A stretch of DNA of 64,000 bases, from NCBI GenBank assembly GCA_002269645.1, contig NIVC01003126.1, forward strand, positions 1 through 64,000, written 5' to 3'. This document shows positions 7,801-63,013 of this stretch, one piece after another. Source of the DNA: Macrostomum lignano (lineage: Eukaryota). The stretch's first letter is position 1. Each line of letters starts with the position of its first letter. The position numbers and the translations under genes were made by a program. The notes beneath the pieces are model-generated. The model had not been told where the DNA came from. It saw only the letters and a program-made list of their open reading frames with translations, and did no database searches.

Positions 7801-10778
7801 AGAGTGACCTGTAAGATTGAGTGACTTAATTAGCGTGACATGTAAGATTGAGTGACTTAATTAGCGTGACCTGTGAGATTGAGTGACTTATTAGAGTGAC
7901 CTGTAAGATTTAGTGACTTATTAGAGTGACCTGTAAGTTTGAGTGACTTATTAGAGTGACCTGTGAGATTGAGTGACTTAATTAGAGTGACCTGTAAGAT
8001 TGAGTGACTTATTAGAGTGACCTGTGAGATTGAGTGACTTATTAGAGTGACCTGTAAGTTTGAGTGACTTATTAGAGTGACCTGTGAGATTGAGTGACTT
8101 ATTAGAGTGACTTGTGAGATTGAGTGACTTATTAGAGTGACCTGTAAGTTTGAGTGACTTACTAGAGTGACCTGTGAGATTGAGTGACTTATTAGAGTGA
8201 CCTGTAAGATTGAGTGACTTTTTAGAGTGACCTGTGAGATTGAGTGACTTATTAGAGTGACTTGTGAGATTGAGTGACTTATTAGAGTGACCTGTGAGAT
8301 TGAGTGACTTATTAGAGTGACCTGTGAGATTGAGTGACTTATTAGAGTGACCTGTGAGATTGAGTGACTTATTAGAGGGACCTGTAAGATTGAATGACTT
8401 ATTAGAGTGACCTGTAAGATTGAGTGACTTATTAGAGTGACCTGTAAGATTGAGTGACTTATTAGAGTGACCTGTGAGATTGAGTGACTTATTAGAGTGA
8501 CTTGTGAGATTGAGTGACTTATTAGAGTGACCTGTGAGATTGAGTGACTTATTAGAGTGACCTGTGAGATTGAGTGACTTATTAGAGTGACCTGTAAGAT
8601 TGAGTGACTTATTAGAGTGACCTGTAAGATTGAGTGACTTAATTAGAGTAACCCGTGAGAGTGAATTACTTTTAGAGTGACTTATGAAAAGAGAGACTGA
8701 CTTTTGGAGTGACCTGTGTCCTATGAGAATGAGTGCTATTTAGAGTGACCTGTGATAGTGAATCTTCTATTAAACTACTATATGAGTGATTGCATTTAGA
8801 CGTTAGTGTGATCGGTGTCTGCAGGAAAGAGTGAGGAGCACAATACTCAGGCAGCATTATTAATTTAACTTTCTAAACCTCCCTTGAACTGCTCAAATCT
8901 CAGGTGACTCTGGGCCTGCGAGCCAACTTAATCTCAGACCTGTCGGAGGTCGCCCACCTGGCCAATTTGCCCCTGCTAGCCAGGCTAATCCTGGCCGATA
9001 ATCCGTTAACTCAGCTAGCGGATTATCGGGTTCGCGCGTTGCAATTATTCGATTCGAGAGCCTCCGAGCTGGTGCTTGACGATGAGCCTGCGACTGCAAA
9101 AGAACTGGACACTATTGCCGTGCTGCAGGCCATCCGACGGAGTCGAGAGCTCAGCTTGTCGTCGTCTTCAGCTGCTGTTGTTGCATCCTCTTGTTCGCCA
9201 CCGGCTGTGCTGCCGCCAGCAGCTCTTCAACCGCCATTTCGTTGTCAGGGCGTTTTGTTAGCTTGTCCTCAGCATCCTCTGCCGCCGCTGAGCCAGGGTT
9301 GCCACGCGAAAGTCGATATTAGCATTGAGAAGCAAGTGCTGATTGTAAAGCCAACAGGTTCAACTAGATCACAGCTTACTCGTAATTTCAATCGATTGCA
9401 ATCTGGGTGGTTCGATTTCGATATTGGGATTCAACGGCTTTCGATTGCCAACGATCAACCGATGGAAAGAGAGCGGTATTATTCGGAACAGTCTGAGCTG
9501 ACCTGTCAAGCAGAGGTGGATACTTACTCTGAGATGTCGACAGGTGCTGATGCACCGGAGCTCATAACTCAATCAGAGACAGGTGGTAATGCACCGGAGC
9601 TCAGAACTCAATTAGAGACAGGTGGTGATGCACCGGAGCTCAGAACTCAATCAGAGAGAGGTGGTGATGCACCGGAGCTCAGAACTCAATCAGAGACAGG
9701 TGGTGATGCACCGGAGCTCAGAACTCAATCAGAGACAGGTGGTGACGCACCGGAGCTCAGTACAGCAGCAGAATCCAACAGAACTCAATCAGAGACAGGT
9801 GGTGATGCACCGGAGCTCAGAACTCAATCAGAGACAGGTGGTGACGCACCGGAGCTCAGTACAGCAGCAGAATCCAACAGAACTCAATCAGAGACAGGTG
9901 GTGACGCACCGGAGCTCAGTACAGCAGCAGAATCCAACAGAACTCAATCAGAGACAGGTGGTGACGCACCGGAGCTCAGTACAGCAGCAGAATCCAACAG
10001 AACTCAATCAGAGACAGGTGGTGACGCACCGGAGCTCAGTACAGCAGCAGAATCCAACAGAACTCAATCAGAGACAGGTGGTGACGCACCGGAGCTCAAT
10101 ACAGCAGCAGAATCCAACAGAACTCAATCAGAGACAGGTGGTGACGCACCGGAGCTCAATACAGCAGCAGAATCCAACAGAACTCAATCAGAGACAGGTG
10201 GTGACGCACCGGAGCTCAGTACAGCAGCAGAATCCAACAGAACTCAATCAGAGACAGGTGGTGACGCACCGGAGCTCAATCCAGCAGCAGAATCCAACAG
10301 AACTCAATCAGAGACAGGTGGTGATGCACCGGAACTCAATCCAGCAGCAGAATCCAACAGAACTCAATCAGAGACAGGTGGTGACGCACCGGAGCTCAAT
10401 ACAGCAGCAGAATCCAACAGAACTCAATCAGAGACAGGTGGTGACGCACCGGAGCTCAGTACAGCAGCAGAATCCAACAGAACTCAATCAGAGACAGGTG
10501 GTGATGCACCGCTGCTCCAATCATTAACGAATCGACCAAGTACGTCCCAGAGTGAGTCATGCACCTCCCGCGTCGATGACTCATACACGCCGCACCAGTC
10601 GCTTCGAATTGATTTACCGTCCATCGTTTCTGCACTGCCGTCCGCTTCTTCCTGGGCAGTCTTCGGTCTGTCAGTTCGCTATAATGACAGGCCTGTGTCA
10701 GCCGAGTCTGTTCTGCTGTTGCTTAGTTTGGCTAGCGAATCCGACCGTGACAGGCTGATTAAAGTGCTCAAGTCTTAG
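1845..10778 (+). CDS. NISCH: Nischarin (PX domain + leucine-rich repeats), 6 exons, about 1019 aa
   Basis: Exons 1845-1928, 2015-2098, 4071-4259, 5864-6265, 7193-7618, 8904-10778; all introns GT-AG and phase 0. Joined protein has a PX domain (TYLIEVQIDSVKWQVKRRFKEFHYLHET...FPPKKSIG...RQKRLSAYLQ), the nischarin-type segment EIQGITGSLTEYLFEKGD...LQLYAI...DFGHLLDFI, LRRs (LKGNSIARLDNLDELEHLAELDLSKNSI) and LADNPL...DYRVRALQLF...KELDTIAVLQAI. These match recalled vertebrate nischarin motifs in order. Confidence 0.93.
2215..4030. repeat. Diverged 21-bp minisatellite (gaaacctggttattaggtagt) filling nischarin intron 2
   Basis: About 85 variant units spaced 21-23 nt, ending about 40 bp before the exon-3 acceptor. 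Confidence 0.95.
4299..5379 (-). mobile_element. Solo LTR of the Gypsy family present full-length at 48509-59469
   Basis: TG...CA termini; 1081 bp clearly homologous to both LTRs of the full element; 4-bp TSD ATAC (4295-4298 / 5380-5383). Lies in nischarin intron 3. Confidence 0.95.
5388..5632 (+). mobile_element. tRNA-derived CORE-like SINE family A, copy 1
   Basis: Box A TAGCACAGTGG and box B GGTTCGATTC, followed by a MIR/CORE-like segment (tttgagcaagacgcttaac...cttcagttcacccagctgtaaaatggg). A second copy is inverted at 23975-24226. Confidence 0.8.
6270..7178. repeat. Composite CAGA-based satellite filling nischarin intron 4
   Basis: Units such as agacagacaccaag and agacagacactgag run from just after the donor to about 14 bp before the acceptor. 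Confidence 0.95.
7700..8760. repeat. 30-bp minisatellite (gagtgacttattagagtgacctgtgagatt) in nischarin intron 5
   Basis: Clear 30-nt periodicity, about 33 copies. Confidence 0.96.
9545..10510 (+). repeat. Coding tandem repeat (39-nt and 60-nt units; RTQSETGGDAPEL[STAAESN]) inside the last nischarin exon
   Basis: Both unit lengths are multiples of 3, and ORF 8904-10778 stays open through the array. Confidence 0.9.
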
Positions 10779-11817: not shown

Positions 11818-12160
11818 TGGTGGTCTTAGCCAGCGGCTTAGGCTCGATTCCAGGTGCTGTCACATTAATCAAGATAGCTTGTGCAATTAATGCCCTTGAG
11901 AGCCAACCCCCCAAGGCGCAGTGAAGTGTACATGCCTAACGATAAATAAAGTTAGGGCCGCTGTACACTCCTGTGTGAGTGTGTGCCTGCGCGTATGACT
12001 CTCTATGCAGTAATGCCTCTCGCTGGTTGTGTGACAATGGAGGGTTCATCGGAAGTCAGAGTTTAAGGCAATGGAGGGTTCATCGGAAGTCAGAGTTTAA
12101 GGCAATGGAGGGTTCATCGGAAGTCAGAGTTTAAGGCAATGTCGCTTAAAGTGCGCCGTG
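11818..12160 (+). mobile_element. SINE family B, copy 2 (with an internal 3x31-bp duplication)
   Basis: Homologous to 1-168 (reverse complement) and to 43036-43271. Contains gacaatgtcgcTTAAagtgcgcc, the empty site of the piggyBac insertion. Confidence 0.7.
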
Positions 12161-43600: not shown

Positions 43601-46332
43601 TGTACGCTCGTATAGTAGCATATAATAATACAGGGAACAGTATTGTGGTAGAGTGCCGCAGTTGGACATTTAATTATTTTTGTCTTAACATAAAGGTAAA
43701 AAATTAATAGTCAATGCCGAATACAAACGCGAATTATATAGTACGGCTGGTGAAAGGAGTTCTTTAATTCAGTGATTCACATGCCACCGTTCAAAGCAGG
43801 GACTTGGGCACAGTCCAGGTGCATTCGGACACGCACTGCAGCAGAACACGGTGCGCTTCGCAGTGCCGTTGCGGTAGCACACGCGGCATCGCTTCACCGG
43901 CCTCGGGCACGATTCCCTCGGAGGCAGCTTTGATGGAAAGTGCTGCTGAGCTGCGGCCGCCGCTGGTTGCCTAGCTGCCGTTCGCTGTCTTCCTGGTCCC
44001 GTGGAGTCAACCAGTAGGGTGATACAGCTCTCCAGGAATTTGAAGAACTGCAGCCGGCCATCGTGCTTTGAGTATACAACCCATGCATTGTGTACAAGCA
44101 GCAGGCAGAGATGAAACCCCAACTTATGAAACCACTTGTAGGTTTTGCGGCAGCTGTCGTACGGTTTCAGCATGGCATCGAGTCGGTCAACGCCTCCCAT
44201 GCAGCGGTTGTACAGCAGGTTCGAGGCGCTTTTCTGCACTTGCACAGCTTCACCATTCTTGCGAATTCGGTTCGTCGCTACTTTCTGAGCTGAGCCGTGG
44301 GTGTCGATCATGAAGAATGTTTTCAAGCCGCTTTCCTTGCGCTCCAGGATTTTCATGGCCAGCACTGGCAGCTTCCTCATGAAAACTACGTCATTCAACG
44401 GCACCTGCTGACTGCGCAATGCCAACGGCACTCCACGGTCGGCTCGAACAGTTGCTGTCAGCAGTGTGCTGCGTTCGTACAGAAAAGTCGCAAGCCGTAC
44501 TGAGGCAAACCACTTGTCGACGAAAAGGTGATAGCCGAAACCGAGCAGGTCCTTGCAAAGGTGCACTACGATTTTCTCGCTTAGAGACAGCTGGTCACAA
44601 CCGAGGTCGTCGCCAAAATGAGAGTTCTCTTCAGCAGTCGAATGTACTAGAAAGTTATACAGGTAGCCAGATGCAGACTCACAGGCGCAGTACATTTTAA
44701 TTCCAACTCTGGCTCTCTTCGATGGGATGTACTGCCTAAACTGAAGGCGCCCCTTGTACAGAATCAGAGACTCGTCGACGCTGACCTGCTGCTCCGGCTG
44801 GTACACGTTCGCGCAGAGCTGCTGAGCCAGACGGAGCAGCGGCCGAATCTTGTGCAGTGGGTCGTTCGAGGCGGGTGCTCGTGCATCGTAGAAACGAAGG
44901 AAGGCCAGCAGCTGCTTGAATCGGTCACGGGTCAAGCCATTGGGCGATTGAAAAAACGGAGTGCTGTGAATGACACTGGTGCTCCAGTAATCATGCAGTT
45001 CCGGCTTCCGTGAGATGCCCATGAACAGGTACATACCCAACAGCTTGGATATCTCACTGCGGTTTGTGTCCTTCCATGACTTCAGCAAGCTCGAAACATC
45101 TTCTCCATCATGTGTCGCCTGCTCATACTCAGCCCAAGCTTTTGCGTTTGTCCACTCCACGATCTTATCCAGCAGCTCATCGGTTAGAAACAGTCGTAGA
45201 AAATATTGGATGCCTTCACGGTCTTCGGGAAGGACAATGCTGGGGTTTACACCCGAAATTCCAGTGAAACTGGGGCCGTCTTCAACAATGTCTTCGCCTG
45301 GCTCCACAAACTGCCAATCGTCTTCTACTTCGCTGATAGTGACCGACTCAGACGACTCGGAGTTCTCCGCTATTCCAGCGTCACTTTCGGAGTCGGAAGT
45401 CAACAGAATATCCATATTTGGATTGATTTGAATTACATGAATAGAATTGTACAGAATTTGGCACAGCCCTTAATATACTAAAGCTGGACTGTCTATGGCC
45501 AGTCTTGTACAGTTTTGATAAGCGTGTGTGCAACCCATTCCAAATGTACATTCTCCTTCAACCCTAGATTAGACCAGCGATGGCTGGCTTATCGGCAGGA
45601 GTGGCAGTGCAATTCAGTTCACTGAAAACTTGAAATAGTCTATGGTCAGCTCTGCTGACCATGCCGGCAGGAACGGAGCTTTCTATTTAGGAATTCAGGC
45701 TTGAAAAGGTTAAAGTGCGCCAGGGTGCACACGGACGTTAATGTTTTGTCTAACTTTGCATTTCCAGCTTGTGAAGTTGTCCCAGTGACACAGTGTCACA
45801 GTGAATCGTGAATCTAACTGATTAAATCAGAGGTTATTTTTGTCAATTCCAATCCATTCGCCAGGTGCACGGTGCTCAGGGCATGATCGCGTCGAATAAC
45901 GTCTGCGACCGGGCGGTGACATCTTCGACAGCTGCTGGGGTGAACAGCGCCAACATTCAGTACTCGTTCCCGCAGCGCTACGCTGAGGGCTACGTTAATT
46001 CGATGCGCAGCTTTCTGAGCCGGATTTCCGGTGGGTTTGGCTTAGACATCAGGGTATTAGTTATTATCAATTTATCAATCATAAAATCGGGCAATAAATC
46101 AACCAGTAATTCAGATAATAAATAAATACGTAAATAAATCAATTAATCAACCTATCAATTAATCAATCAGTTAGGTACTCCATCAATTAATCAATCATAA
46201 AATCTATCAATAAATCAATAAATCAATCAATCAATCCATCAATTAATAAATCAATAAATCAACCAATCAGTTAGTTAATCAGTCAATTAATCAATCAACT
46301 AATCAATCAATCAATCAATCAATCAATCAACA

Positions 46333-48508: not shown

Positions 48509-49797
48509 TGATGTGTTCCTTATTACCAGTCCTCAACTGTAATCAAGGAACAATCACTTCTAGCTCTGTAGCTAGGCAACCCAGTAATCAAATGAAGGTA
48601 TTCAATTACCTTTAATCCGGATTCTTAGATTTCGTTCTTGAGTCGTTCTCAACTGTAGATCTCTCAGTAGATCTTGTAGACTTCTAGACGTCTTCAGGTG
48701 TCGATCGGGTCCGAGTTTCCTTCTTCTTTCCTTTAGAAGTATTTCCGGCCGGAATCTGTCGTTCGGACCAATAGGAAGCTTCCAAATTAACAATGGGGAT
48801 CCCTGCGCCAAACTGCGGTTTAATATAAGCCTACTCCTTCTAGTAGTGCCTCTATGCACTCTAGGTATGGCTCCGGAAACCACTGATAGTCTTCTAAGAT
48901 CTATCAGGGGCAGTCCTTCTGGAGACTGCAACCAGTAGAGTCTAAACAGACTCAGGAGTCTCAACAGACTCACTATAAACTCAAGTCACTCTTGGACTTG
49001 AGCGAGACGTCTCAACCAACAGGCGCAAATGAGTAAGGCTTACCGCAAGAACTCGACCACGTCTTCGAGTTGCTTCAGGAAGTCTGCTGCAGATCTTCCT
49101 CTTCGGAGCTTTCTCTCTCGGAGATTGTGGCTCCGGGTCCGTTCCGGACCACTTGTATTTATAGGCAAATGGACCCCCATGAGGTCACGTGGGTCCAACT
49201 CTTCAGCTGTCAAAAAGGTCACGGTTTGGCTGCTGTCAAACTTGGCAGGGTAGAAAGTTACTCCATTGGTTCAGTGTAAAAGCGCGTGATTGGTCATCGC
49301 ATTCGAGTTATTTTTAGTTACATTTGATTGGTTCACGTGCGTACGGTTGAATGATGCATCTCTCCTGGGGTTTGCGTTCGACACGTACAGGTTACACGTG
49401 ATTGGGTGATTTCTAAATTTAGCATGCTCAAGGTCTCTCTTTTTCTATTGGTTAGTCAGCATATACTTATAATTCAAAGCATACCTTTATTCATGCTCTT
49501 CAACTTACTACTAAATAAAATGTGTGAGTAGTACGTTAACACTTTTATGTCTTTTTTACGAAAGGTAGAACACTCTACAAAATCTCCCATGTTTACAAAA
49601 AACCCGTCCCGAGTTTTAAATAGAGGATTGAAACGCATAAAAGGTTCAAGCATGTCTTTATAATAATCATTTGTCACAAGTGTTACAGGTATTTAGTAAT
49701 GGGTAGTTAAGAGCATTGGTTATAAAAGTTATTTAAAGGTAAGTATACGCATGCAAATAAAATGTTTTTGGTTACAGTATTGACATGTGCGCCAAGA

Positions 49798-50010
49798 CTA
49801 ACAATAGGCGCACTGCCGCAAGCTACTTCTACCTATCGGGCAATTCTGCCAGAGCTGAATATAATGTGAGTCGCTTAAATATTGTCTGCATATGCGATGT
49901 CTGTTTTCACAAATAATTGGTGGCTTGACAGCCAAGTCATCAGTTAAACATATTGGGCATTCGTAGAGTTGCTGTAGTTGGGGCGCCTGTTTGGACAGTG
50001 CGTTGCCCAT
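49798..50010 (-). CDS. Accessory ORF of the LTR element: 70-aa protein with an N-myristoylation motif and a degenerate RING finger
   Basis: First ATG in good context (acaATGg). MGNALSK fits MGxxxS/K. CPIC-x12-CENRHRICRQY-x12-CPIG has RING (SINA-like) ligand spacing, with ligands 6 and 8 encoded by TAT and GGT, each one base from TGT. Confidence 0.65.
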   Translation of the reverse strand: MGNALSKQAPQLQQLYECPICLTDDLAVKPPIICENRHRICRQYLSDSHYIQLWQNCPIGRSSLRQCAYC

Positions 50011-50121: not shown

Positions 50122-53100
50122 TTAACGAGGTCGCAGATTGTAGCCGTGTTGCTGTTTCTCGGTTGATGTTTGTGTCTCCTCGTGTTTTGTTGCGATGTGG
50201 CGGTTCGCCGAACGCGTGCGATCAGCGTTGTCTAGTGACGGTAAAAACGTTGTCATGTCAGTGTTGATCTTCTTTAGTCGATGAATGTGCACGTAGAATT
50301 GGTGCTGATGAGGATCTTGCACATTGGCCAGGCGTGCCGTTGTCGGTGACGTTAGTTGGACCACTCGATATGGTCCTTTGTATTTCTGTGCGTGTTTGTG
50401 CGTTTGTTGCGGCGGATAGTGCAGGTAGACGATGTCGCCGGCTGTCAGAGTTGTCGATCTCGTGTCGGTGCCGGTGGTTAGAGCCACCTGATTGTCGATG
50501 TTGTGCTTGGCTACTTTCCATGCGAGGTGTAGTTGCGTGACGAACTTTTGAATGGACGTCGGGACTTCCACATATTGCGATGGTAGTAGTTGCTGTGCCA
50601 ATAGGTTTGGTGGTTGGAAGTCTCGTCCAAACATTAGAAAGAATGGCGTATTGTCCGTCGATCTATGAATAGCGCTGTTGTAGGCCATTGTTACGGATTG
50701 TAGGTAGATGATCCAGTCTTCCGGCTGTTGATGCGCGAAGTGCGTGATCATCTCATGCAGATTACGATGAAACCGTTCAACCATGTTTGCTTTCGGATTG
50801 TAGGTCGACGTGTAGATCTGCGTGATGTTGAGTATCTTCACAACTTGCTGAAACAGTTGAGATACAAATTGTGATCCATTGTCCGACGTGAGATTCTTCG
50901 GTGAGCCGTACTTGCAAATAATGTCGTTGAAGAAACACATTGCCACCGTTTGAGCTGTGATGTCCGGTATCGGTATAGCGATAGCAAACTTCGAGAAAAT
51001 ATCCAAGGCGGTTAGGATGTAGGTGTAGGCGATGCCCTGGAGACAGCTCGGTGGTAGTGGTCCGGTGATGTCGATGCTGAGACAGTCCATAGTTGTTGAC
51101 TTCGGAATGGACTGTAGCTGTGGCTTCTGTCGTCGTCCCGTCTTTGATGCTGCGCATGAGTGGCAGTTGTTGCAATACTGCTTGATGTCGCCGTACATGC
51201 TTGGCCAAAAGTAGTATTGCTCCACTCTTGCAATGGTTTTGGCTGCCGACAGGTGTCCAGCGAGTGGATTGTCGTGCAGTTCGTTGAGAATTGCCTGCCT
51301 AAACGAATATGGCATGTAGATTTTAGGTTTGTTGTCACTCATCCAGTAGAGTCGTGACTTGTTGATTGTTAAATGTTGTCGCTGCTTGCGCAGGAATTTT
51401 CGTTCCACGGGGCTGAGCTTGATGTCCTTGTCGTTGTTTTTAATTGCTTGGTAGAAGTAGTCGTTCTCGGTTTCATCCATCAACTCCTTGATGTTAGGAA
51501 TTGGATGAATGGCGTTGACTTCGTAGGTTCTTGACAGAGCGTCCGCAGCCTTGTTAGTAATTCCTGGTTTGTAGACGAGTTTGTAGTTGTAGTCCTGGAT
51601 CTTGAGTGTCATCCTGATGAGTCGGTTGTTTGTTTGTCCTTTTGTAGTTACGACGTAGGTCAGCGGTGCGTGATCTGTGCGTACTATCGTCTGTAATGGA
51701 GATCCATAGATGTAGTAGTGAAACTGTCGTAGAGCGAACAGAACTCCTAGTAGTTCTCGTTCCGTAGCTGACCATTTTGTCTCATTCGGTTTAAGTGCTC
51801 GACTGACGTAGGCTATAGGTCGTTCCTTTTTGTCTTCAGTTTCCTGTAGTAGGACTGCTCCGAGTCCCGTTCCTGAGGCGTCTGTCTCGATGATGAAGGG
51901 TTTGTCGAAGTCCGGATGCTGTAGCAGTGCGTCTGATGTCAGCTGCCGTTTGATTTCGTCAAAACTTTCTTGTTGCTTTTGTGTCCAATTCTCTTGTTTC
52001 CACTTGTCGAACTTGAGCAGGTCGTACAGCGGTTTTGCTGTCTTCGCGAAGTTCGGTAAGAACTTTCGGAAGTATTGCGCTAGTCCAAGAAACGATTGGA
52101 CCTTTGTTATGCTAGTTGGCGTAGGAAACTTTTTTACTTTCTCCACGTTGTCTGGGTCCGGTGAAATTCCTTTGGCTGTCACTTGGTGTCCTAGGTAACG
52201 TACGTTGTCTCGGAAGAATTTGCATTTCGTTGGTTGCAGCTTAAGACCTTGGCGTTGAATGAGCGCTAGTGCCTTCTCCGTAGCTTCATAGAGTCGTTGG
52301 AAGTCTTCTCCGTAGGCCAAGATGTCGTCGACATAGTGCAACAGGTTCGTGCATCCTGCAAGCATGTATGCCGTTAGTCGGCTCATTGTTGCTGGGCTGT
52401 TGCTGAGTCCCATTGGCGATCGGTTGTACTCGTAGACTTGTCCATTGTAGGTCTTGAAAGCCGTGTACTGTCGTGATTCTTTCTCGATTTCAATTTGCCA
52501 AAATCCATGACGTAGGTCGAACACCGTGAACAATTTTGCTGTGTTGAGCTTCGCTAGTAGCTCGGAGATCTTTGGTAGGCTTTGCTGATCCGTCGGTATA
52601 TACTTGTTCAGCAGTCTGAAGTCGCATACCAGTCGTCTTTCGTTAGTCTCCTTCTTTTGTACCAGTAGGCACGGTGAGGAGTAGGCTGAAATTGCTTTGC
52701 TGATGATGCCGTGCTTTAGCATTTTATCGATAATTTCGTCAAAGTGTTGTTGCAGATGCTTGGCAATCGGGTACGGCTTGCACTGAATTGGTTCCGTGTG
52801 TGGTAGAAGCTTGATTTCTTGTTTAATGTCTTTAGCGCGTCCGATGTCGTAATCATGATGGCAGAAGGCTTCGTTGTACTTCCACAACAGTTGTCGAACT
52901 TTCTTCTTTTGTTGTTCCGTGATCGGGCTGTCGTCCAAGTTGATTTTCTTTTGAAATTCTTCTTCTGTTAGTCGTGGAGTCGCGTGCTCAATCAGCATAA
53001 CTGATGCTTGAGTATTAAGATGACCGATGCACATTCCTTGTCGTAGATGAACCATTTCCGCGTTTGGGTTAAAGATTTGTACTGGCAGCTGCGTATCTTT

Positions 53101-56100
53101 TGCCACCAGCACTAGTGCCGTAGGCATCATGATTTGATGTTTTGCCGTGACTCTCCTGTGTGGATCAAATATCATTGCTTCATCTGCCGCGCTGGTCGTT
53201 TTCGCTCTGACCCAGCATGCGCTTTCAGGCTGGATGATGACATCTTGCTGCAGAGTTACTTTTGGTAGTACTCGAATCTGGTTAATCAGTGGTTGCTCCA
53301 CCGTGTCGATCCTAAACGTTTGCTTGTTGAAGTCGAAGGTCAATGGTAGTCGAAGCTGTTTGAACGTGTCTATTCCAACGATGACGTCTTGGTTTGGTAG
53401 TCTGTCGATGATGTACGTCGGGACCGTCAGCTGTTTATTTGCAATTTTCAAGTCGATATCTGCTTTTCCTAGGATGTTGAGTGAATGTCCTCCTGCTCCT
53501 GCAACTGCGATTGCTGCTGGTCGTACCGCGAGTCGTAGCTTGTTGCATAATTGTTGCGAGATGACTGTGATCGAGCTGCCTGAATCCAGTAGTGCTCGAC
53601 ATGGCAAGTTGTTGACAATGACCTGAGCCATTGCTTTGCCAATCTCGGCGTGTAGCGTGCAGACGTAGTTTTCCGGCCATTTTGGCTCGTGTTGTTCGGG
53701 CTGATAAATAGGTGGCTGCATTCTCGGTGCTGTTGGTGTTGTCGGAATCGATGGATACATTCGCGTTGATAGTGTTGGCTGTCCTTGAGTTTCACGCTGT
53801 GCGTCTTCTGTCAATTCCAAGTTTTTGTCTTCATCCCTTGTCGTCTTTTGCATGATAGCGTTCACTGTTCGTTTCGCTGTAGGGCAAGTGTTGCTGAAGC
53901 ATCGTACTATCGATGAGATGATAAAAATTGCTGTGACTATCCAAACAACGCAGGCGCTGTAGAAGATGAAGCCTTGATATAGGCTGCCTCTTCCGTTAAG
54001 CAGCTCCAAGAAGCTGTTTGTCCAAAACGATTGGATGGCGTTGTCCATTGACACAAGGACCGGGAAATTGCGTGTTCCCGTTCCTTTATTCTTTCGTGTG
54101 AAGAGTTGACGAATCATTTTTCGTTGAGTGATAAACGCTTGCAAGAAGTCGTTGATGGTCCATCCTGGTGTTATTTCATCGAGTTGGATATCGGCGAATG
54201 GTGTGTACTTCGTTCTGTTGAATCGTATCTTCAGATCGTCCATATCGTACGTTTCATCGACAATCACCTCTGGTTCTGTGATGTTCGCTGTCGTTCCTGT
54301 CGTTTTAATGACATGTAGTGCATCGTCCAGTTGATAGTAGTTTGCTGCAGTGGTGCAAGGTCTTGGTATTGCGGTGCCAACGATGATGTTGTGTACCGTG
54401 TCCAAGAATCCTTGGATCCTTTTGCCTTCGTAGAATGCTTCAATTCTCGGCTTGTCGTAGCAAGTTGTTAAAGTGTTCGACGGTAAGATGTTGAAGTGCT
54501 GTATCGGCGTACACTTGTATATCAGGAGATGTCCATATATCGGAATTGCCAGAACCTCTCTCATTCCAGTGATCTTGCGAAATGTCATCGTAGGGTTGAC
54601 ATAGTAGTTTTGTCTTGCGTAGTTCAAGTTGATTGCGTGCATCTTGCAAGTTAACTGAACCAGTGATCGATGTAGGTGATTTAGCTGGTTATGCAGATTG
54701 TGATCTAAAGCCGTGATCTTTGCTGACAGTAGTCGGTTCGACACCAATCGTGGACGTTCTATGTCGCGTCGTTGCCTTTCTTGTTGCTGATATGTTCCGT
54801 TTATGATTGCCAGGAAGGTTTGTTTGTCACTATCCTTTACATAGACTGGTATTTCTTGCTCCGAGATGAACAGCGTCTTGTCCGTATTCTTGCATTTGAG
54901 TTCTTGTTCGATCGGCGTCTTTTGAAACGTCAAGGCCAAGTCTCCTGCTTTTGCCAAAAACGTATTCGACAATAGTCCTCCTTCCACTGTGTGATACTTT
55001 TGAAGCTTGCAGTCAATTTCCGGTTCTACTTCCCATGCGAAGAAATATTGTCGTGACTTGTACGGTTCCTCATAGTGTGAGTGTGCTCTGTGCTCAATCT
55101 GCCATCGATAGTTTTGATGATATGTTGGACTCAGTGGTAGACTGTGTAATTCTTCCTTTCGTAGAATTGGTGTTGGACACCATCCTTCACTGTATCGACA
55201 TTCGCTTAGTTGCAGCTGTAACGATTCCATTTTCTCGTACGGATTGTAGTAGAATGGAATATTTCTGATCAAGTAGCTGTTACGTGCCATATATTCTTTC
55301 CATTTTCCGAAGAAGTGAATATATCGACCGTTGGCTGAATTCTTTGTTCTGAACAGCTGTGCGTTACCGACCTTCTCATCTGGTTCCAATTCACCATCCT
55401 TTGAAAATAGTGTTTGGTTCCATTGTAGGCATTCCGCGTGTGACACATGTAGCTCATGTTGTTTAAATCGGATCCGGTTCCATTGTCCGCGCCAAACTTT
55501 TTCCACCAGGTGCTTGTCTCTAAAGCACACTATTCCAAGTTGTCGATGCTTCTTGATGTTAGCCTTGTAGAGATCGAGTGTAATCTTCTTTGGCTTCGTC
55601 TGGTTTGTCTTGAAGTAGCTGCATTTGATGTCGGTTGGTATCTTGTAGATCATCGGTTGGATATGCGCATCCGTTGGACAGATCATTGGTTTTTCTGTTG
55701 CCGTTGCTTTGGCGACTACTGCTATCAGTAGTATCACGATGATCCAGAGCAGCCAGTTTTTCCACTTCTTGGACCTTGCCGTTGTCTTTGCTGGCATTGG
55801 CTGCGATTGCCATTCGTTATCCTCCATGTCCGCATCGTATTCTTTCGGTTGTTCCATTGGCTGTTTCAGGCGGAAGGCTTCTGATTTGCTTTGCTCTTTG
55901 GCTAGTTCAGTATCTTCGTCTGCAGCTTCTTCCGATGTTTCCGTTGTTTCACTCCATTGCGTTTGGTATCTTTTCTCTGCCTTGTAGTCGACCGTTTGAA
56001 TATAGGCTTCACCATTTCGTTTGTATCGGATCTCGTAGCATTCGTCGCTGTCGGAACTCGGCTTTTCTTTTATCTGTTCTTTTTCCATTTCTTCATCTTT

Positions 56101-57609
56101 CCATTGTATTTCGTAGCCTTGATCGCTGTCGGAGCTTAGATTTTCCGCTCTCAGTTCTTCCTGCATTCCTTCTTCGGCTCGGTATCCGTTCGTGTCATCA
56201 TGCACCTCGCAGTCGTGATCGTTGCCGTAACTTATACATTCTTCTTCTTCCCTCATTTCTTTGTCTTTCGTGCTTGTTTTGTTGTCATCCACTGTTGTCG
56301 ATTCATAGTTGTTTTGTCTGCCAGTCTTCATCTTTTCTTCGTTGCCGGTGTCGCTCTCCGCCTCCTCCCTTTTCTGTTGATTTACTTTCTTCCTGTTTTC
56401 TCTGCTGTCTCCGGTGGTCTCTTTTAATTCGATCATTTCGGTTTCATTCGCCTCTTCTGTGTTGTCAGTGTTGTCCTCGTGCGTCGTCTTCTTTTCGATC
56501 AAGCTGATGTCAACTTCCGGGACTGTGAAGTCCATTTCCAAGTCGTCAATTGTGAACACTTGCTGTTCTTGCTGTTCATTTTCCGGTGTGTACGTGATGG
56601 CATTCGCGTATCGTGGCATTGCTTGCGTCGGCTGTCTTTGTGTGTACCTGGCGTTGCGTGGCCTGTAGCCATTATTTCTGAAGCGACCGTCGTTTCCGAA
56701 GCGGCCATTATTTCCAGAGCGGTCATTATTTCCGAAGCGTCTATCATTTCCGAAGCGTCTTATGCCTTGTTGTTGGCGATTTTGATATTGCTGCCATGGT
56801 TTCTGCGGCTTTTGATTGTTGAATATCTGTCGCGGCTTGTCGTACCTTGTTGACCAATGAGGACAATTAATCTGATAATGTCCTTCTTGTCCGCAGTAGT
56901 AACATCTGGCTGAGGCTTGTTCATTTCTTCTTTTTTGTTCGGCGATAGCAGCTGTCTGGTGCTGCATTAATTTGTTTAATTGCTGCGTCAGTTTCTGCAC
57001 TTCATTGTTGCCTGTCGTCATTAATGGGGCACTGGCTTCCCATTGCATTCCGCACCGCAAAAGGTCTTCTTCGGTTTCGATGTTTTCACGCAAAAGTCTA
57101 TCCCGAAGTGACGGCTGTGCGTTGTTTATTACGTGCAAGATTAGGTTTTGTTCGCGATCCATCAATCTCTGTCTCTCTCTGGCGGCCAATTCTGCCGCTC
57201 CCAGTGGCGGTTGATCTGCAGCTTGCAGCGGTGGCTGATGTAGTGCCTTAATTATCTGGCGGATATCGTCCACAAAGGCGAGGAAGGATTCTGTTGCCTG
57301 CATCCTTCTGTTATGTAATTTGTGCAGCAGCACTGATCTGTTTGTGCCGCAACGGTTGAAATGCGCGCGCAGTTGAATGATTAGTGCTGGATAATTTTGC
57401 TGTGTTGCCGCATCCAGCTTGCCGTAAATTTCTCGCGCAGTACCTTGGAGAAGAGGTGGCAGCAGCTGTGCCTTCTCTGGATTTTGTAGGTTGTACTCCC
57501 TACATACCAGGTCAAAATGGTCGACAAATGTGTTAAAATCTTTCTCCATCGAGAAAGTACCGACCGTTTCTTTGATGTCTCTGTGTACCGTTGGATTGCG
57601 CCGCGCCAT
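50122..57609 (-). CDS. 2495-aa Gag-Env-like-Pol polyprotein (CA, CCHC knuckle, gB-like glycoprotein, protease, RT, RNase H, integrase)
   Basis: CYYCGQEGHYQINC; hydrophobic signal/anchor at about aa 619-637; furin site RQRR at aa 945-948; TM at about aa 1214-1236; LLDSGS at aa 1342; YVDD at aa 1759; IETDASGTGLGAVL (RH); HDNPLAGH...CNNC, SIDITG, SDNGSQF, VERFH and the GPY motif (IN). No stops or frameshifts. Confidence 0.97.
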   Translation of the reverse strand: MARRNPTVHRDIKETVGTFSMEKDFNTFVDHFDLVCREYNLQNPEKAQLLPPLLQGTAREIYGKLDAATQQNYPALIIQLRAHFNRCGTNRSVLLHKLHNRRMQATESFLAFVDDIRQIIKALHQPPLQAADQPPLGAAELAARERQRLMDREQNLILHVINNAQPSLRDRLLRENIETEEDLLRCGMQWEASAPLMTTGNNEVQKLTQQLNKLMQHQTAAIAEQKRRNEQASARCYYCGQEGHYQINCPHWSTRYDKPRQIFNNQKPQKPWQQYQNRQQQGIRRFGNDRRFGNNDRSGNNGRFGNDGRFRNNGYRPRNARYTQRQPTQAMPRYANAITYTPENEQQEQQVFTIDDLEMDFTVPEVDISLIEKKTTHEDNTDNTEEANETEMIELKETTGDSRENRKKVNQQKREEAESDTGNEEKMKTGRQNNYESTTVDDNKTSTKDKEMREEEECISYGNDHDCEVHDDTNGYRAEEGMQEELRAENLSSDSDQGYEIQWKDEEMEKEQIKEKPSSDSDECYEIRYKRNGEAYIQTVDYKAEKRYQTQWSETTETSEEAADEDTELAKEQSKSEAFRLKQPMEQPKEYDADMEDNEWQSQPMPAKTTARSKKWKNWLLWIIVILLIAVVAKATATEKPMICPTDAHIQPMIYKIPTDIKCSYFKTNQTKPKKITLDLYKANIKKHRQLGIVCFRDKHLVEKVWRGQWNRIRFKQHELHVSHAECLQWNQTLFSKDGELEPDEKVGNAQLFRTKNSANGRYIHFFGKWKEYMARNSYLIRNIPFYYNPYEKMESLQLQLSECRYSEGWCPTPILRKEELHSLPLSPTYHQNYRWQIEHRAHSHYEEPYKSRQYFFAWEVEPEIDCKLQKYHTVEGGLLSNTFLAKAGDLALTFQKTPIEQELKCKNTDKTLFISEQEIPVYVKDSDKQTFLAIINGTYQQQERQRRDIERPRLVSNRLLSAKITALDHNLHNQLNHLHRSLVQLTCKMHAINLNYARQNYYVNPTMTFRKITGMREVLAIPIYGHLLIYKCTPIQHFNILPSNTLTTCYDKPRIEAFYEGKRIQGFLDTVHNIIVGTAIPRPCTTAANYYQLDDALHVIKTTGTTANITEPEVIVDETYDMDDLKIRFNRTKYTPFADIQLDEITPGWTINDFLQAFITQRKMIRQLFTRKNKGTGTRNFPVLVSMDNAIQSFWTNSFLELLNGRGSLYQGFIFYSACVVWIVTAIFIISSIVRCFSNTCPTAKRTVNAIMQKTTRDEDKNLELTEDAQRETQGQPTLSTRMYPSIPTTPTAPRMQPPIYQPEQHEPKWPENYVCTLHAEIGKAMAQVIVNNLPCRALLDSGSSITVISQQLCNKLRLAVRPAAIAVAGAGGHSLNILGKADIDLKIANKQLTVPTYIIDRLPNQDVIVGIDTFKQLRLPLTFDFNKQTFRIDTVEQPLINQIRVLPKVTLQQDVIIQPESACWVRAKTTSAADEAMIFDPHRRVTAKHQIMMPTALVLVAKDTQLPVQIFNPNAEMVHLRQGMCIGHLNTQASVMLIEHATPRLTEEEFQKKINLDDSPITEQQKKKVRQLLWKYNEAFCHHDYDIGRAKDIKQEIKLLPHTEPIQCKPYPIAKHLQQHFDEIIDKMLKHGIISKAISAYSSPCLLVQKKETNERRLVCDFRLLNKYIPTDQQSLPKISELLAKLNTAKLFTVFDLRHGFWQIEIEKESRQYTAFKTYNGQVYEYNRSPMGLSNSPATMSRLTAYMLAGCTNLLHYVDDILAYGEDFQRLYEATEKALALIQRQGLKLQPTKCKFFRDNVRYLGHQVTAKGISPDPDNVEKVKKFPTPTSITKVQSFLGLAQYFRKFLPNFAKTAKPLYDLLKFDKWKQENWTQKQQESFDEIKRQLTSDALLQHPDFDKPFIIETDASGTGLGAVLLQETEDKKERPIAYVSRALKPNETKWSATERELLGVLFALRQFHYYIYGSPLQTIVRTDHAPLTYVVTTKGQTNNRLIRMTLKIQDYNYKLVYKPGITNKAADALSRTYEVNAIHPIPNIKELMDETENDYFYQAIKNNDKDIKLSPVERKFLRKQRQHLTINKSRLYWMSDNKPKIYMPYSFRQAILNELHDNPLAGHLSAAKTIARVEQYYFWPSMYGDIKQYCNNCHSCAASKTGRRQKPQLQSIPKSTTMDCLSIDITGPLPPSCLQGIAYTYILTALDIFSKFAIAIPIPDITAQTVAMCFFNDIICKYGSPKNLTSDNGSQFVSQLFQQVVKILNITQIYTSTYNPKANMVERFHRNLHEMITHFAHQQPEDWIIYLQSVTMAYNSAIHRSTDNTPFFLMFGRDFQPPNLLAQQLLPSQYVEVPTSIQKFVTQLHLAWKVAKHNIDNQVALTTGTDTRSTTLTAGDIVYLHYPPQQTHKHAQKYKGPYRVVQLTSPTTARLANVQDPHQHQFYVHIHRLKKINTDMTTFLPSLDNADRTRSANRHIATKHEETQTSTEKQQHGYNLRPR

Positions 57610-59045
57610 GTTGTTGATAGGATAGAACGGTAGTTCAAGATCTGGATCGATTTGTAACGGATCGTCCAGTGTGGTGTTTGCCTCGGAATAAACCTCAACT
57701 GTAACGAATTGCCTTGTAGTGTCGATCTGTTATTCGCTGGCCTCGAAGTTGCGGCTTGCTGCCACTGGTTGTCCTCAAATGAACTTGTTCTGTTCGCTTG
57801 CCGTTTTCGCACTTATGCGGCGTCCCGCAAAGTGTATCCTGAAGTGGACTTTGTCTTCTTGCTTTGCAAAGACTTTTTTCTCTTCCCTGACTTTCTCTCT
57901 TTTGTCAATTAACTCCGCTCTCCACGAAGTGTCAATTAATTTCGGTTTTGTTTTAGTTTTTGTGCCGGCAAAATGTTTCAGTTATTTTTTGTTTGTTTGC
58001 GTCGACGATTCTTTGATTTTCGGTTTGTTTTCAGTGTACCGACGAAGTTAATTTCGGTTTTGTTTTAGTGTGTATTGATTAATAATTTTTTTGTTTATTT
58101 TCAGTGTACCGGACGTTGTTTTTCGGTTTTGTTTTAGGTTTACGCTTGCTCGAGCTCGTTAAAAACTAAAATTTAACACGCGTGCTCAAACGTTACTCAA
58201 AATTGACAGGTACTCAAGCCTGTATACCTAAGCTTTTACTCGAGTTTCAAATCGTACAAAAATCGAAAAGTGTCGAAAAGTGTTACCTCTAACACGTGCG
58301 CGCAAAATTAATGAAGTCGCTCTTTCGTCACTTTACAATAGCTTGGCCAGGCTATTGCTCAAAAGTTTGAGTAGTGCCGAGAGGGCGAGATCACCAATTG
58401 ATGTGTTCCTTATTACCAGTCCTCAACTGTAATCAAGGAACAATCACTTCTAGCTCTGTAGCTAGGCAACCCAGTAATCAAATGAAGGTATTCAATTACC
58501 TTTAATCAGGATTCTTAGATTTCGTTCTTGAGTCGTTCTCAACTGTAGATCTCTCAGTAGATCTTGTAGACTTCTAGACGTCTTCAGGTGTCGATCGGGT
58601 CCGAGTTTCCTTCTTCTTTCCTTTAGAAGTATTTCCGGCCGGAATCTGTCGTTCGGACCAATGGGAAGCTTCCAAATTAACAATGGGGATCCCTGCGCCA
58701 AACTGCGGTTTAATATAAGCCTACTCCTTCTAGTAGTGCCTCTATGCACTCTAGGTATGGCTCCGGAAACCACTGATAGTCTTCTAAGATCTATCAGGGG
58801 CAGTCCTTCTGGAGACTGCAACCAGTAGAGTCTAAACAGACTCAGGAGTCTCAACAGACTCACTATAAACTCAAGTCACTCTTGGACTTGAGCGAGACGT
58901 CTCAACCAACAGGCGCAAATGAGTAAGGCTTACCGCAAGAACTCGACCACGTCTTCGAGTTGCTTCAGGAAGTCTGCTGCAGATCTTCCTCTTCGGAGCT
59001 TTCTCTCTCGGAGATTGTGGCTCCGGGTCCGTTCCGGACCACTTG

Positions 59046-59053
59046 TATTTATA
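59046..59053 (-). promoter_or_regulatory. TATA box in the 5' LTR, with several upstream CCAAT boxes
   Basis: Minus strand ccTATAAATAcaag; at least four ATTGG on the + strand between 59155 and 59345. Same TATA at 49156-49163 and 4956-4963. Confidence 0.65.
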
Positions 59054-59837
59054 GGCAAATGGACCCCCATGAGGTCACGTGGGTCCAACTCTTCAGCTGT
59101 CAAAAAGGTCACGGTTTGGCTGCTGTCAAACTTGGCAGGGTAGAAAGTTACTCCATTGGTTCAGTGTAAAAGCGCGTGATTGGTCATCGCATTCGAGTTA
59201 TTTTTAGTTACATTTGATTGGTTCACGTGCGTACGGTTGAATGATGCATCTCTCCTGGGGTTTGCGTTCGACACGTACAGGTTACACGTGATTGGGTGAT
59301 TTCTAAATTTAGCATGCTCAAGGTCTCTCTTTTTCTATTGGTTAGTCAGCATATACTTATAATTCAAAGCATACCTTTATTCATGCTCTTCAACTTACTA
59401 CTAAATAAAATGTGTGAGTAGTACGTTAACACTTTTATGTCTTTTTTACGAAAGGTAGAACACTCTACACTCTCCTCTCGTCTCCTCTCCTCTCCTCTCC
59501 TCTCGTCTCCTCTCCTCTCCTTTCCTTTCCTCTCCTCTCCTCTCCTCTCCTCTCCTCTCGTCTCCTCTCCTCTCCTCTCGTCTCCTCTCCTCTCCTCTCC
59601 TCTCCTCTCGTCTCCTCTCCTCTCGTCTCCTCTCCTCTCCTCTCCTCTCCTCTCCTCTCCTCTCCTCTCGTCTCCTCTCCTCTCGTCTCCTCTCCTCTCC
59701 TCTCCTCTCGTCTCCTCTCCTCTCCTCTCCTCTCGTCTCCTCTCCTCTCCTTTCCTCTCCTCTCCTCTCCTCTCCTCTCCTCTCCTCTCGTCTCCTCTCC
59801 TCTCCTTTCCTCTCCTCTCCTCTCCTCTCCTCTCCTC

Positions 59838-61620: not shown

Positions 61621-61984
61621 TGTCATGCGCTAGGTTCTCTGTATCTGGCCCTTGAGGTAAAATTTCGCCAACCCCTGTTTTAGAACATATGGGCCACCTC
61701 GTCTTGGGTGTTTATGTCCTGTCAAGTTGTTTAACAGGTCAACCTGCCCTGGGCCGATCTTAATTAATGATCACCTATAGCTACCATGGCATTTTAATAG
61801 TCAAATAGTTTAAGGAAAGCGATCCTTTTGCGAAACATTTGCGAAACAGCGAAACATTTTGCACGTTAAAAGTCTTTGTGTTTTCGTACCGATTCAAAAG
61901 CGGCGTTTTCAAGGAATCGGTCACGTTAGGTGAGTTGAGAATAAAGCAGAACTTTAAGTTTTCTATTCTTACTTCTACATTTAA

Positions 61985-62684
61985 GCAAGGACGACTTAAG
62001 TAGAAGGACGGGAAACCTCGTTTCTTAGAAAAGTTTTGAAGGCACTTTTTCCCGAAAAAATACACTACGGAGATAGGAAGTTTTCATTTTTTCAGCACAA
62101 AAATTGTTATTGCGTTTGATAGGAGGCAGATCCAGTGTTCATCTTTTGATATGTTGTGCCTTTTTTATTGCTCTATCGATATTTATAAAGCTTTTCGTTC
62201 AGAAAATTAGGATTCTATGTTAATTTTTTATTCTACGTATATTTTCGCGCGTCTTGTGCTTGAAATACATTAGAATGCCACGGCTCGGCTCTTTAGCTTC
62301 ATGAGTCTTTTTTATCATTCTTACCCGACTGTTTAGCAAATATTTGTAACAGAGATGATAAAATAGGTTCATAAAACCAAATATTGGAGCTGTGTCATGC
62401 ATTTTTGTGATTTTTAGATACAGGAAATATACGTAGAATAAAAAATTAACATAGAATCCTAATTTTCTGAACGAAAACTTTTATAAATATCGATAGAGCA
62501 ATAAAAAAGGCACAACATATCAAAAGATGAACACTGGTTCTGCCTCCTATCAAACGCAATAACAATTTTTGTGCTGAAAAAATGAAAACTTCCTATCTCC
62601 GTAGTGTATTTTTTCGGGAAAAAGTGCCTTCAAAACTTTTCTAAGAAACGAGGTTTCCCGTCCTTCTACTTAAGTCGTCCTTGC
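61985..62684. mobile_element. Foldback / long-TIR non-autonomous DNA element (260-bp arms, 180-bp spacer)
   Basis: 61985-62244 is the near-perfect reverse complement of 62425-62684; flanked by the direct hexamer ATTTAA. Confidence 0.85.
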
Positions 62685-63013
62685 ATTTAAGTCAGATAAT
62701 AAAAAGTAAACCCAGAGCAAGCAATGGTGACAGTGAATTTCAAAATATTAAATTTTTCAAAGTGTTAAAGTATCTGTAAGACTTCAGGTCGATGATAATA
62801 TCAAATAAACTTCAAAAGTTCAACTTACATACTATTTTATTTATCTTCAGCATTCAGGTTTTATAGATTTCACTTAAAAATACTGTTTTTTTAACTTCCT
62901 AGTTTTATCATTGGATATTTAGCTTCTTAAATTTATCATGTCTGTCTATTCTAATTGTATTTTTTACATAAGACTATTTATCTAAATTTAGCAATTAAAA
63001 ACATTAACATATT

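Follow-up and report, generated by a model that had tools for sequence, protein, structure and literature searches.

Retroelements with the gene order GAG-ENV-POL and an Env protein of the herpesvirus gB type are described in nematodes, bryozoans and flatworms, including one from Macrostomum lignano, and since they are catalogued there the element class is already known (PMC13524379). The main text of this publication contains none of the terms ESCRT, late domain, budding, PTAP, RING, myristoyl, tail and cytoplasmic (the last four as whole words). The use of ESCRT by errantiviruses was stated to be unknown in a review of 2012 (PMC3383448). The available text of a further paper does not mention 'budding' (PMC3315495), and that of a study on M. 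lignano LTR families contains nothing on env (PMC12801592). A literature search which covered mainly papers available without subscription returned no report of late domains in the Env tails of these elements, and the family-wide enrichment of such motifs between Env and protease presented here is apparently unreported so far. Three classes of late domains and their host partners are given as in PMC7995964: P(T/S)AP (TSG101), PPxY (NEDD4 family) and YPXnL (ALIX). HIV-1 p6 possesses PTAP and YPXnL, ASLV has PPxY, EIAV has YPXnL and Ebola virus the sequence PTAPPEY (PMC7995964).

The element described here is located on the minus strand of a window of 64,000 nucleotides, i.e. the whole stretch of M. 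lignano DNA that was analysed (contig NIVC01003126.1, positions 1 to 64,000). It is an intact LTR element with a single uninterrupted open reading frame (ORF) of the type GAG-ENV-POL, env being located between gag and pol, and comprises the following features.

58399..59469, minus strand: 5' LTR of 1071 nt with TG...CA ends, 99.8% identical to the 3' LTR
58385..58396, minus strand: primer-binding site (PBS), a 12-mer identical to one listed for Mlig_errantivirus_2 (supplement row of PMC13524379)
55768..57609, minus strand: Gag, with a capsid-like part, one CCHC knuckle (56863-56904) and then a long acidic spacer (sequence, Pfam)
55693..55767, minus strand: TM1, internal signal/anchor between Gag and Env, residues 655-679, with basic residues on its N-terminal side (hydropathy peak 2.46; putative signal peptide)
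53983..55692, minus strand: Env ectodomain, herpesvirus-gB-like (class III), with a furin-type RQRR at residue 985 and five N-glycosylation sequons
53890..53982, minus strand: TM2, C-terminal transmembrane anchor of Env, residues 1250-1280 (Kyte-Doolittle peak 2.39)
53644..53889, minus strand: predicted cytosolic Env tail or Env-protease linker, residues 1281-1362 (from hydropathy and the Pfam start of the protease)
53674..53679, minus strand: Trp-Pro upstream of the protease fold, residue 1351, candidate N-terminal cleavage site of the protease
53356..53625, minus strand: aspartic protease (Pfam PF13650/PF13975)
50122..53355, minus strand: rest of Pol, in frame, with RT, RNase H and integrase in Ty3/gypsy order (PF00078, PF17917/PF17919, PF17921, PF00665)
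48509..49579, minus strand: 3' LTR of 1071 nt; an AGAG 4-bp duplication is present at the element ends

The ORF thus reads Gag, acidic spacer, TM1, Env ectodomain, TM2, linker, protease (PR), RT, RNase H and integrase (IN). Judged by its LTRs, its PBS, the order of the Pol domains and the Pfam families, the element is most probably a Ty3/gypsy LTR retrotransposon; it has paired LTRs with TG...CA ends, a PBS, a target-site duplication and the Pol order PR-RT-RNaseH-IN. The AGAG duplication is weak on its own because it lies inside a GA-rich repeat. A solo LTR of the same family (4299-5379, 94% identical) is flanked by a clean 4-bp GTAT duplication. As in errantiviruses of the GAG-ENV-POL HSV/gB type, a gB-like ectodomain is found between a signal/TM segment and a second TM segment, and env lies between gag and pol. 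Env is not recognised by Pfam. An Env profile matches EBV gp110 among the PDB sequences with an E value of 2e-16, and the AlphaFold model of the ectodomain (pLDDT 71) resembles KSHV gB in Foldseek (E 8e-21, TM about 0.41). The intact fusogen fold and the nearly identical LTRs indicate a recently active element.

The closest described element, Platyhelminthes_Rhabditophora_Mlig_errantivirus_2, shares the gene order, a gB-type Env between hydrophobic segments, a Ty3/gypsy Pol, the LTRs, the 12-nt PBS and the host of the nearest relatives (PMC13524379). It differs in the LTR-to-LTR offset (9727 vs 9890 here) and in the LTR length (863 vs 1071 nt, the listed copy reaching the contig end), the comparison being one of PBS and LTR figures (PMC13524379). 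Since basic residues stand before TM1 and after TM2 and the Env sequons lie between the two segments, Gag as well as the linker and Pol would be cytosolic. The predicted Env tail possesses a juxtamembrane Cys and basic residues, with lysines at 1286, 1295, 1302 and 1350.

Residues are numbered in the stop-to-stop frame 50122-57729 (2535 aa), whose first Met is residue 41 at 57609. Translation of the minus strand at 53701-53760 gives 20 residues (1324-1343) of this frame, in which the following three motifs are found.

53746..53760, minus strand: MYPSI, a motif of the YPxL/I type (ALIX-type), to which the endocytic pattern YxxPhi also fits; LYPSI in the relatives P0004, P0012 and P0013
53725..53736, minus strand: PTAP, a TSG101-type motif, identical in P0004, P0012 and P0013
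53704..53715, minus strand: PPIY, a PPxY motif (NEDD4/WW-type); PPNY in P0004, P0012 and P0013, which is a change at the free position only

The motif patterns used are ELM-type definitions. MYPSI, PTAP and PPIY are packed into 19 residues of the linker which leads from the Env anchor to the protease, 44-62 residues past TM2 (1250-1280) and roughly 40 ahead of the protease DSG (D1382). Each of the patterns [LM]YPx[LI] (at 1324), PTAP (1332) and PPxY (1339) occurs once in the 2535-aa ORF. A match to the loose YPxL pattern, YPAL, is present at residue 113 in the Gag of the element. The presence of YPSI, PTAP and PPIY within 20 residues of the Env tail, as reported in the preliminary description, stands, and the cluster is confirmed as real and non-random. 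When the 89-aa linker was shuffled, all three strict motifs appeared together in 0 of 1,000,000 sequences and in 10 of 1,000,000 with the loose YPx[LI] version; for shuffles of the same 20 residues the figures were 9 (strict) and 84 (loose) per 1,000,000. A three-motif cluster within 20 aa was found in none of 20,000 shuffles of the whole ORF and in none of 20,000 shuffles in 50-aa blocks. These tests are post hoc, as the patterns were picked after the cluster had been seen, but the counts lie far from chance. A comparable three-motif cluster is absent from the window's other five frames.

An overlapping reading frame is an unlikely source of the block, because two of the three plus-strand frames have stops there and no overlapping ORF of at least 150 aa spans it. 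Nor is translation likely to begin internally at the Met of MYPSI, because the relatives carry Leu at this position. The block matches the late-domain patterns P(T/S)AP, PPxY and YPXnL in sequence. With regard to position, hydropathy, the flanking basic residues and the sequons predict a cytosolic linker, so the motifs would be accessible to ESCRT.

The nearest relatives of the ORF are proteins of M. lignano with 94-97% identity. In P0004, P0012 and P0013 18-19 of the 89 linker residues differ, yet LYPSI, PTAP and PPNY are read, and all changes within the block affect free motif positions. These three proteins form one lineage and count as a single independent comparison. Compared to P0012, 12 of 43 residues differ in the proximal tail, 3 of 19 in the block, 53 of 570 in the ectodomain and 2 of 221 in RT. 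The conservation in this sister lineage is weak taken alone (P about 0.09 for 18 changes sparing 10 fixed sites). P0003 (84% identity), a chimeric gene model with several gaps, is without the motif block; from the neighbouring codons this gap seems to be a predicted intron and was not counted as a loss. Word-indexed homolog searches gave two matches, the same two with an Env profile on longer proteins and one at near lengths; no further close copies and no Env tails of GAG-POL-ENV elements were found by these searches. In other M. lignano families with about 30% identity, PSAP is present in the same linker (P0015, which has LYPTL too, P0020 and P0029), and P(T/S)AP motifs occur in the homologous linker of P0015, P0016, P0020, P0027 and P0029.

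For the distant relatives a phmmer scan with 230 matches was used, of which the best 150 entered the analyses. With the linker masked, 145 of 149 of these matches (P0003 aside; best 150 of 230) still pass, so the selection of relatives is independent of the motifs. Env was found in 80 of the best 150 of 230, and 58 of them with a callable TM2 were kept (6079 aa of linker). The remaining 22 of the 80 were dropped for lack of a TM2 call, most of them ending before TM2; among these, P0016 has PSAP in its tail. In the 58 linkers (best 150 of 230) P(T/S)AP occurs 6 times against 0.44 in shuffled sequences (0 of 2000 shuffles), PPxY 8 times against 1.08 (0 of 2000), loose YPxL 8 times against 1.72 (0 of 2000) and strict LYPxL 3 times against 0.18 (3 of 2000). 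Any strict motif is present in 15 of the 58 linkers from the best 150 of 230, with 1.65 expected (0 of 2000 shuffles). It is absent from 43 of 58; two classes are found together in 4 of 58 and all three in 0 of 58.

The excess of P(T/S)AP and PPxY in the 58 linkers (best 150 of 230) holds under doublet shuffles and under local shuffles over 15 aa. In the same set, PPxY is more frequent than each of its 12 letter-permutation controls, and the count of P(T/S)AP is equalled only by the overlapping (T/S)APP. If the 25 residues adjoining the protease are left out, P(T/S)AP still stands at 6 against 0.37 and PPxY at 6 against 0.88 (58 linkers, best 150 of 230). With one linker per clade and the own clade excluded, 7-10 of 27 clades (best 150 of 230) carry a motif, compared to a null mean of 0.85 and a maximum of 5. 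The clades were grouped by hand from a quick Env tree with long branches flagged. Mapping the motif label on this tree takes 11 changes, of which well-supported branches force 5 or more. Where the host of a motif carrier is named among the matches listed, it is M. lignano or one of the nematodes Ostertagia ostertagi and Acrobeloides nanus.

In the Gag-side sequences (29 sequences, 14,123 aa) and in Pol (41 sequences, 22,254 aa) of the listed relatives no motif excess was found. P(T/S)AP is mildly over-represented also in the lumenal ectodomains (3 vs 0.64, 7 of 300 shuffles, among the matches listed), where no action is possible. Both regions are available in 21 listed relatives; a motif is present in the linker of 4 of these and on the Gag side of 3, the two regions amounting to 2511 and 13067 aa, respectively, and P0167 carries LYPNL close to its N-terminus. 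The preliminary description had proposed that ESCRT is recruited through the Env tail rather than through Gag. The first half of this proposal agrees with the enriched linkers, with the Gag-side and Pol sequences that are not enriched and with the Gag of the element itself, which contains zero PTAP or PPxY and has no MG at its N-terminus. The words 'rather than Gag' are soft, because Gag, Env and Pol form one polyprotein and some relatives have Gag-side motifs.

The ALIX-type motif appears to be the weakest leg family-wide. Once the 25 residues next to the protease are cut away, none of the 3 strict LYPxL matches is left, and the loose YPxL pattern is found 4 times against 1.33 (228 of 5000 shuffles; 58 linkers, best 150 of 230). 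The trim also removes the motif of P0015, which is separate from the WP of this protein. In P0024, P0054 and P0051 the YPxL matches occupy the slot which in other members is taken by Trp-Pro, and Trp-Pro within the last 45 aa is found in 14 of 41 relatives' linkers among the matches listed (2.2 expected, 0 of 5000 shuffles). As regards conservation across the family, which had been named as a check, all three motifs are kept in the sister lineage and P(T/S)AP and PPxY are enriched; the triple is present in 0 of 58 distant linkers (best 150 of 230). As classes, P(T/S)AP and PPxY are conserved above background, though not universally (15 of 58, best 150 of 230).

On balance we lean towards the view that the block consists of functional late domains, used for budding, in the cytosolic tail of the gB-type Env. 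TM1 would thread Env into the ER and leave Gag tethered to the membrane, and TM2 would return the chain to the cytosol, so that tail and Pol may hang beneath each Env trimer. Since Gag has neither a matrix-type myristoylation signal nor PTAP or PPxY, assembly would take place on the membrane where Env is located. The tail might bring TSG101 (through PTAP) and a NEDD4-family ligase (PPxY), perhaps also ALIX (YPSI), to the bud neck, and ESCRT-III could then carry out scission, either at the plasma membrane or towards the interior of multivesicular bodies. Retroviral proteases often cleave aromatic-Pro bonds, which makes Trp-Pro 1351 a candidate cleavage site. After a cut near this site, Pol would be released and the motifs would stay with Env.

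Rather unlikely, and still the best of the alternatives, is that the same host partners are bound by motifs which serve as sorting or turnover signals. PPxY-dependent ubiquitination and uptake through YxxPhi or PTAP would then send Env (or Env-Pol) to endosomes and lysosomes, and the fusogen would be limited or positioned at the cell surface without scission of element particles. The tail of a membrane protein is the usual site of such signals, YPSI fits YxxPhi too, and four lysines are present in the tail. Furthermore, herpesvirus gB is ubiquitinated via its tail and sent to multivesicular bodies, and the epithelial sodium channel was the first protein on which signals of the PPxY type were noticed (PMC7995964). 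The relatives' linkers among the matches listed speak against this possibility, as generic sorting signals are not enriched in them (YxxPhi 30 vs 25.1, dileucine 3 vs 5.4, LPxY 0 vs 0.74), whereas there is an excess of P(T/S)AP, the type known from viral budding. In addition, 5 of the 6 P(T/S)AP cases in the 58 linkers (best 150 of 230) read P(T/S)APP, the form which HIV p6 carries. Because the same partners sort membrane proteins into endosomes, the motifs are not an independent proof of budding. The claim of the preliminary description that they independently support budding and extracellular particles could not be upheld, also in view of rubella E2, whose PPAY is ESCRT-independent (PMC11481484); taken alone, such motifs would not establish extracellular particles.

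A different origin of the segment, compatible with budding, would be a C-terminal late-domain peptide of Gag (p6-like), split off when env was inserted between nucleocapsid and protease and belonging to the Env tail by position only. In lentiviruses the late domains are located in p6, directly upstream of the protease. A position in Gag-p6 is also given in PMC7995964, and in the relatives among the matches listed the motifs are found in the distal part of the linker, for the most part 17-94 aa ahead of the protease. We consider this origin improbable, as motif type and order vary by clade and the linkers are only 20-31% identical (among the matches listed), which looks like repeated gain. Spacers between CCHC and protease in env-less relatives contain 0 motifs in 9 sequences (487 aa), a control too small to decide. 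Moreover, the records of P0057 and P0167, which belong to one family, end 28 aa past PSAP, so that the motif would there be part of a Gag-Env product without Pol.

It seems very doubtful that the motifs are look-alikes with another job (capsid contact, non-ESCRT SH3/WW partners, protease processing) or that they simply result from a disordered linker rich in proline. In favour of this, the 58 linkers (best 150 of 230) contain 8.4% proline, several YPxL matches (P0024, P0054, P0051) sit in the Trp-Pro slot and rubella E2 PPAY works through capsid contact (PMC11481484). Against it, shuffles preserving composition and permuted-motif controls fail to reproduce the counts, YPSI (1325) and the WP site (1351) do not coincide in this element, and a single unrelated function would hardly account for three different ESCRT-linked patterns side by side.

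Going beyond the proposed late-domain function of the block, a small ORF in the 3' region has to be considered.

49798..50010, minus strand: 70-aa ORF in the gap from the pol stop to the 3' LTR, with an MG start followed by a RING-like Cys/His stretch

The MG start fits a myristoylation pattern. In the second half of the ORF the spacing deviates from that of canonical RING ligands, and the RING matches are each weak yet agreeing (Pfam E 0.025-0.98; TRAF6/SIAH1 E 0.04-0.16; Atlas RING clusters 0.89-0.91). When the gap was shuffled 20,000 times, the first-half RING pattern appeared in 0 and an MGxxxS/T ORF in 37 of 20,000 sequences. No relative of the 70-aa ORF was found among the proteins retrieved. 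Arenavirus Z is a parallel in outline for a small myristoylated RING-like protein; homology of the 70-aa ORF to Z was not found. As a membrane-bound ubiquitin ligase or with a matrix-like role, the putative protein would suit either ESCRT reading, budding as well as sorting. A wider proposal, which we put forward tentatively and think doubtful as a whole, is that a single membrane-anchored polyprotein is the assembly unit of GAG-ENV-POL retroelements of the gB type, and that budding proceeds via Env-tail late domains gained by several lineages, Env replacing the matrix. In the present family, a matrix or ubiquitin-ligase function might further be contributed by a small myristoylated RING-like protein from the 3' region, and this part, considered alone, is quite improbable.

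The excess of TSG101- and NEDD4-type motifs across the family is evidence at the level of sequence that these elements engage the budding or sorting machinery of the host. Specific partners and a handle of 20 residues can be named, both testable in a tractable flatworm, and the arrangement hints at a route by which membrane assembly could proceed for a Gag-Env-Pol polyprotein that has no matrix domain.

Among known systems, the retroelement Cer1 was rejected as a model, as its extra ORF lies after pol and is not an Env (PMC10309623). Herpesvirus gB resembles the Env described here in its ectodomain fold, and its ubiquitination and multivesicular-body sorting depend on the tail (PMC7995964). 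It differs by an identity of 10-14%, by being a free-standing protein and by a budding role shared with tegument proteins. The tail of rubella E2, from a virus without matrix protein, has a late-domain-like PPAY which is experimentally ESCRT-independent and not conserved (PMC11481484). For the GP2 tail of hartmanivirus, likewise a virus without matrix protein, a budding-type motif has been proposed; this motif is of the ALG-2 type and a prediction only (PMC6261641). Bluetongue virus NS3, a viral membrane glycoprotein, carries PSAP and PPRY, and budding is promoted by these motifs, to which TSG101 and NEDD4 bind (PMC7409164). However, this virus is non-enveloped, and NS3 is non-structural, is no fusogen and is not fused to Gag or Pol. 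The late domains of retroviral Gag belong to the same three classes and are likewise clustered, proline-rich and located just upstream of the protease (PMC7995964). They differ from the block of M. lignano in that here the motifs follow the Env anchor within one polyprotein, whose Gag has no PTAP or PPxY and no MG start. If assembly as one membrane-anchored polyprotein with Env in place of the matrix proved true, a flatworm would harbour an active budding route that resembles that of retroviruses but differs from the one driven by Gag.

Among relatives of the element's ORF, protein records P0057 and P0167, which belong to one family, have an identical end point 28 aa past PSAP, and this shared end suggests that a Gag-Env product is made separately from Pol. 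Other relatives (P0022, P0032, P0033, P0040, P0043, P0051, P0052 and P0154) carry at least two protease-like domains in tandem after Env. Four features of the element itself are located as follows:

57936-58111, between the primer-binding site and gag: leader repeats, with short direct repeats and A-rich runs
55770-56760, minus strand: long acidic spacer, lying between the CCHC knuckle of Gag and the hydrophobic segment TM1
53674-53679, minus strand: Trp-Pro, a short distance upstream of the protease fold
49798-50010, minus strand: ORF of 70 aa inside the element, with an MG start and a RING-like Cys/His pattern

The Trp-Pro is a candidate processing site; it recurs before the protease fold family-wide, with Tyr-Pro or Phe-Pro in some members. 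The acidic spacer contains four copies of an 18-nt repeat as well as a 78-nt duplication, and has diverged fast in the relative P0003. A donor-like site lies near 58290 in the leader region, and a candidate splice acceptor is found about 70 nt upstream of the small ORF. The start of this ORF is in good Kozak context, and its MG fits a myristoylation pattern.

The window also contains the following features:

8877-10778, plus strand: frame of 633 aa that starts like a leucine-rich repeat and contains a tandem repeat of 20 aa (60 nt)
4299-5379, minus strand: solo LTR of the element's own family (94% identity), flanked by a target-site duplication of 4 bp
43769-45469, minus strand: piggyBac-like transposase ORF (DDE_Tnp_1_7, E 6e-71) with a zinc finger
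61958-62711: inverted repeat pair of 287 nt (94%, gap of 180 nt)
1-72 and 11877-11948: inverted pair of 72 nt, 11.8 kb between the arms

The 633-aa frame is probably a host exon. The transposase ORF appears intact, and both inverted pairs are possibly non-autonomous DNA transposons.
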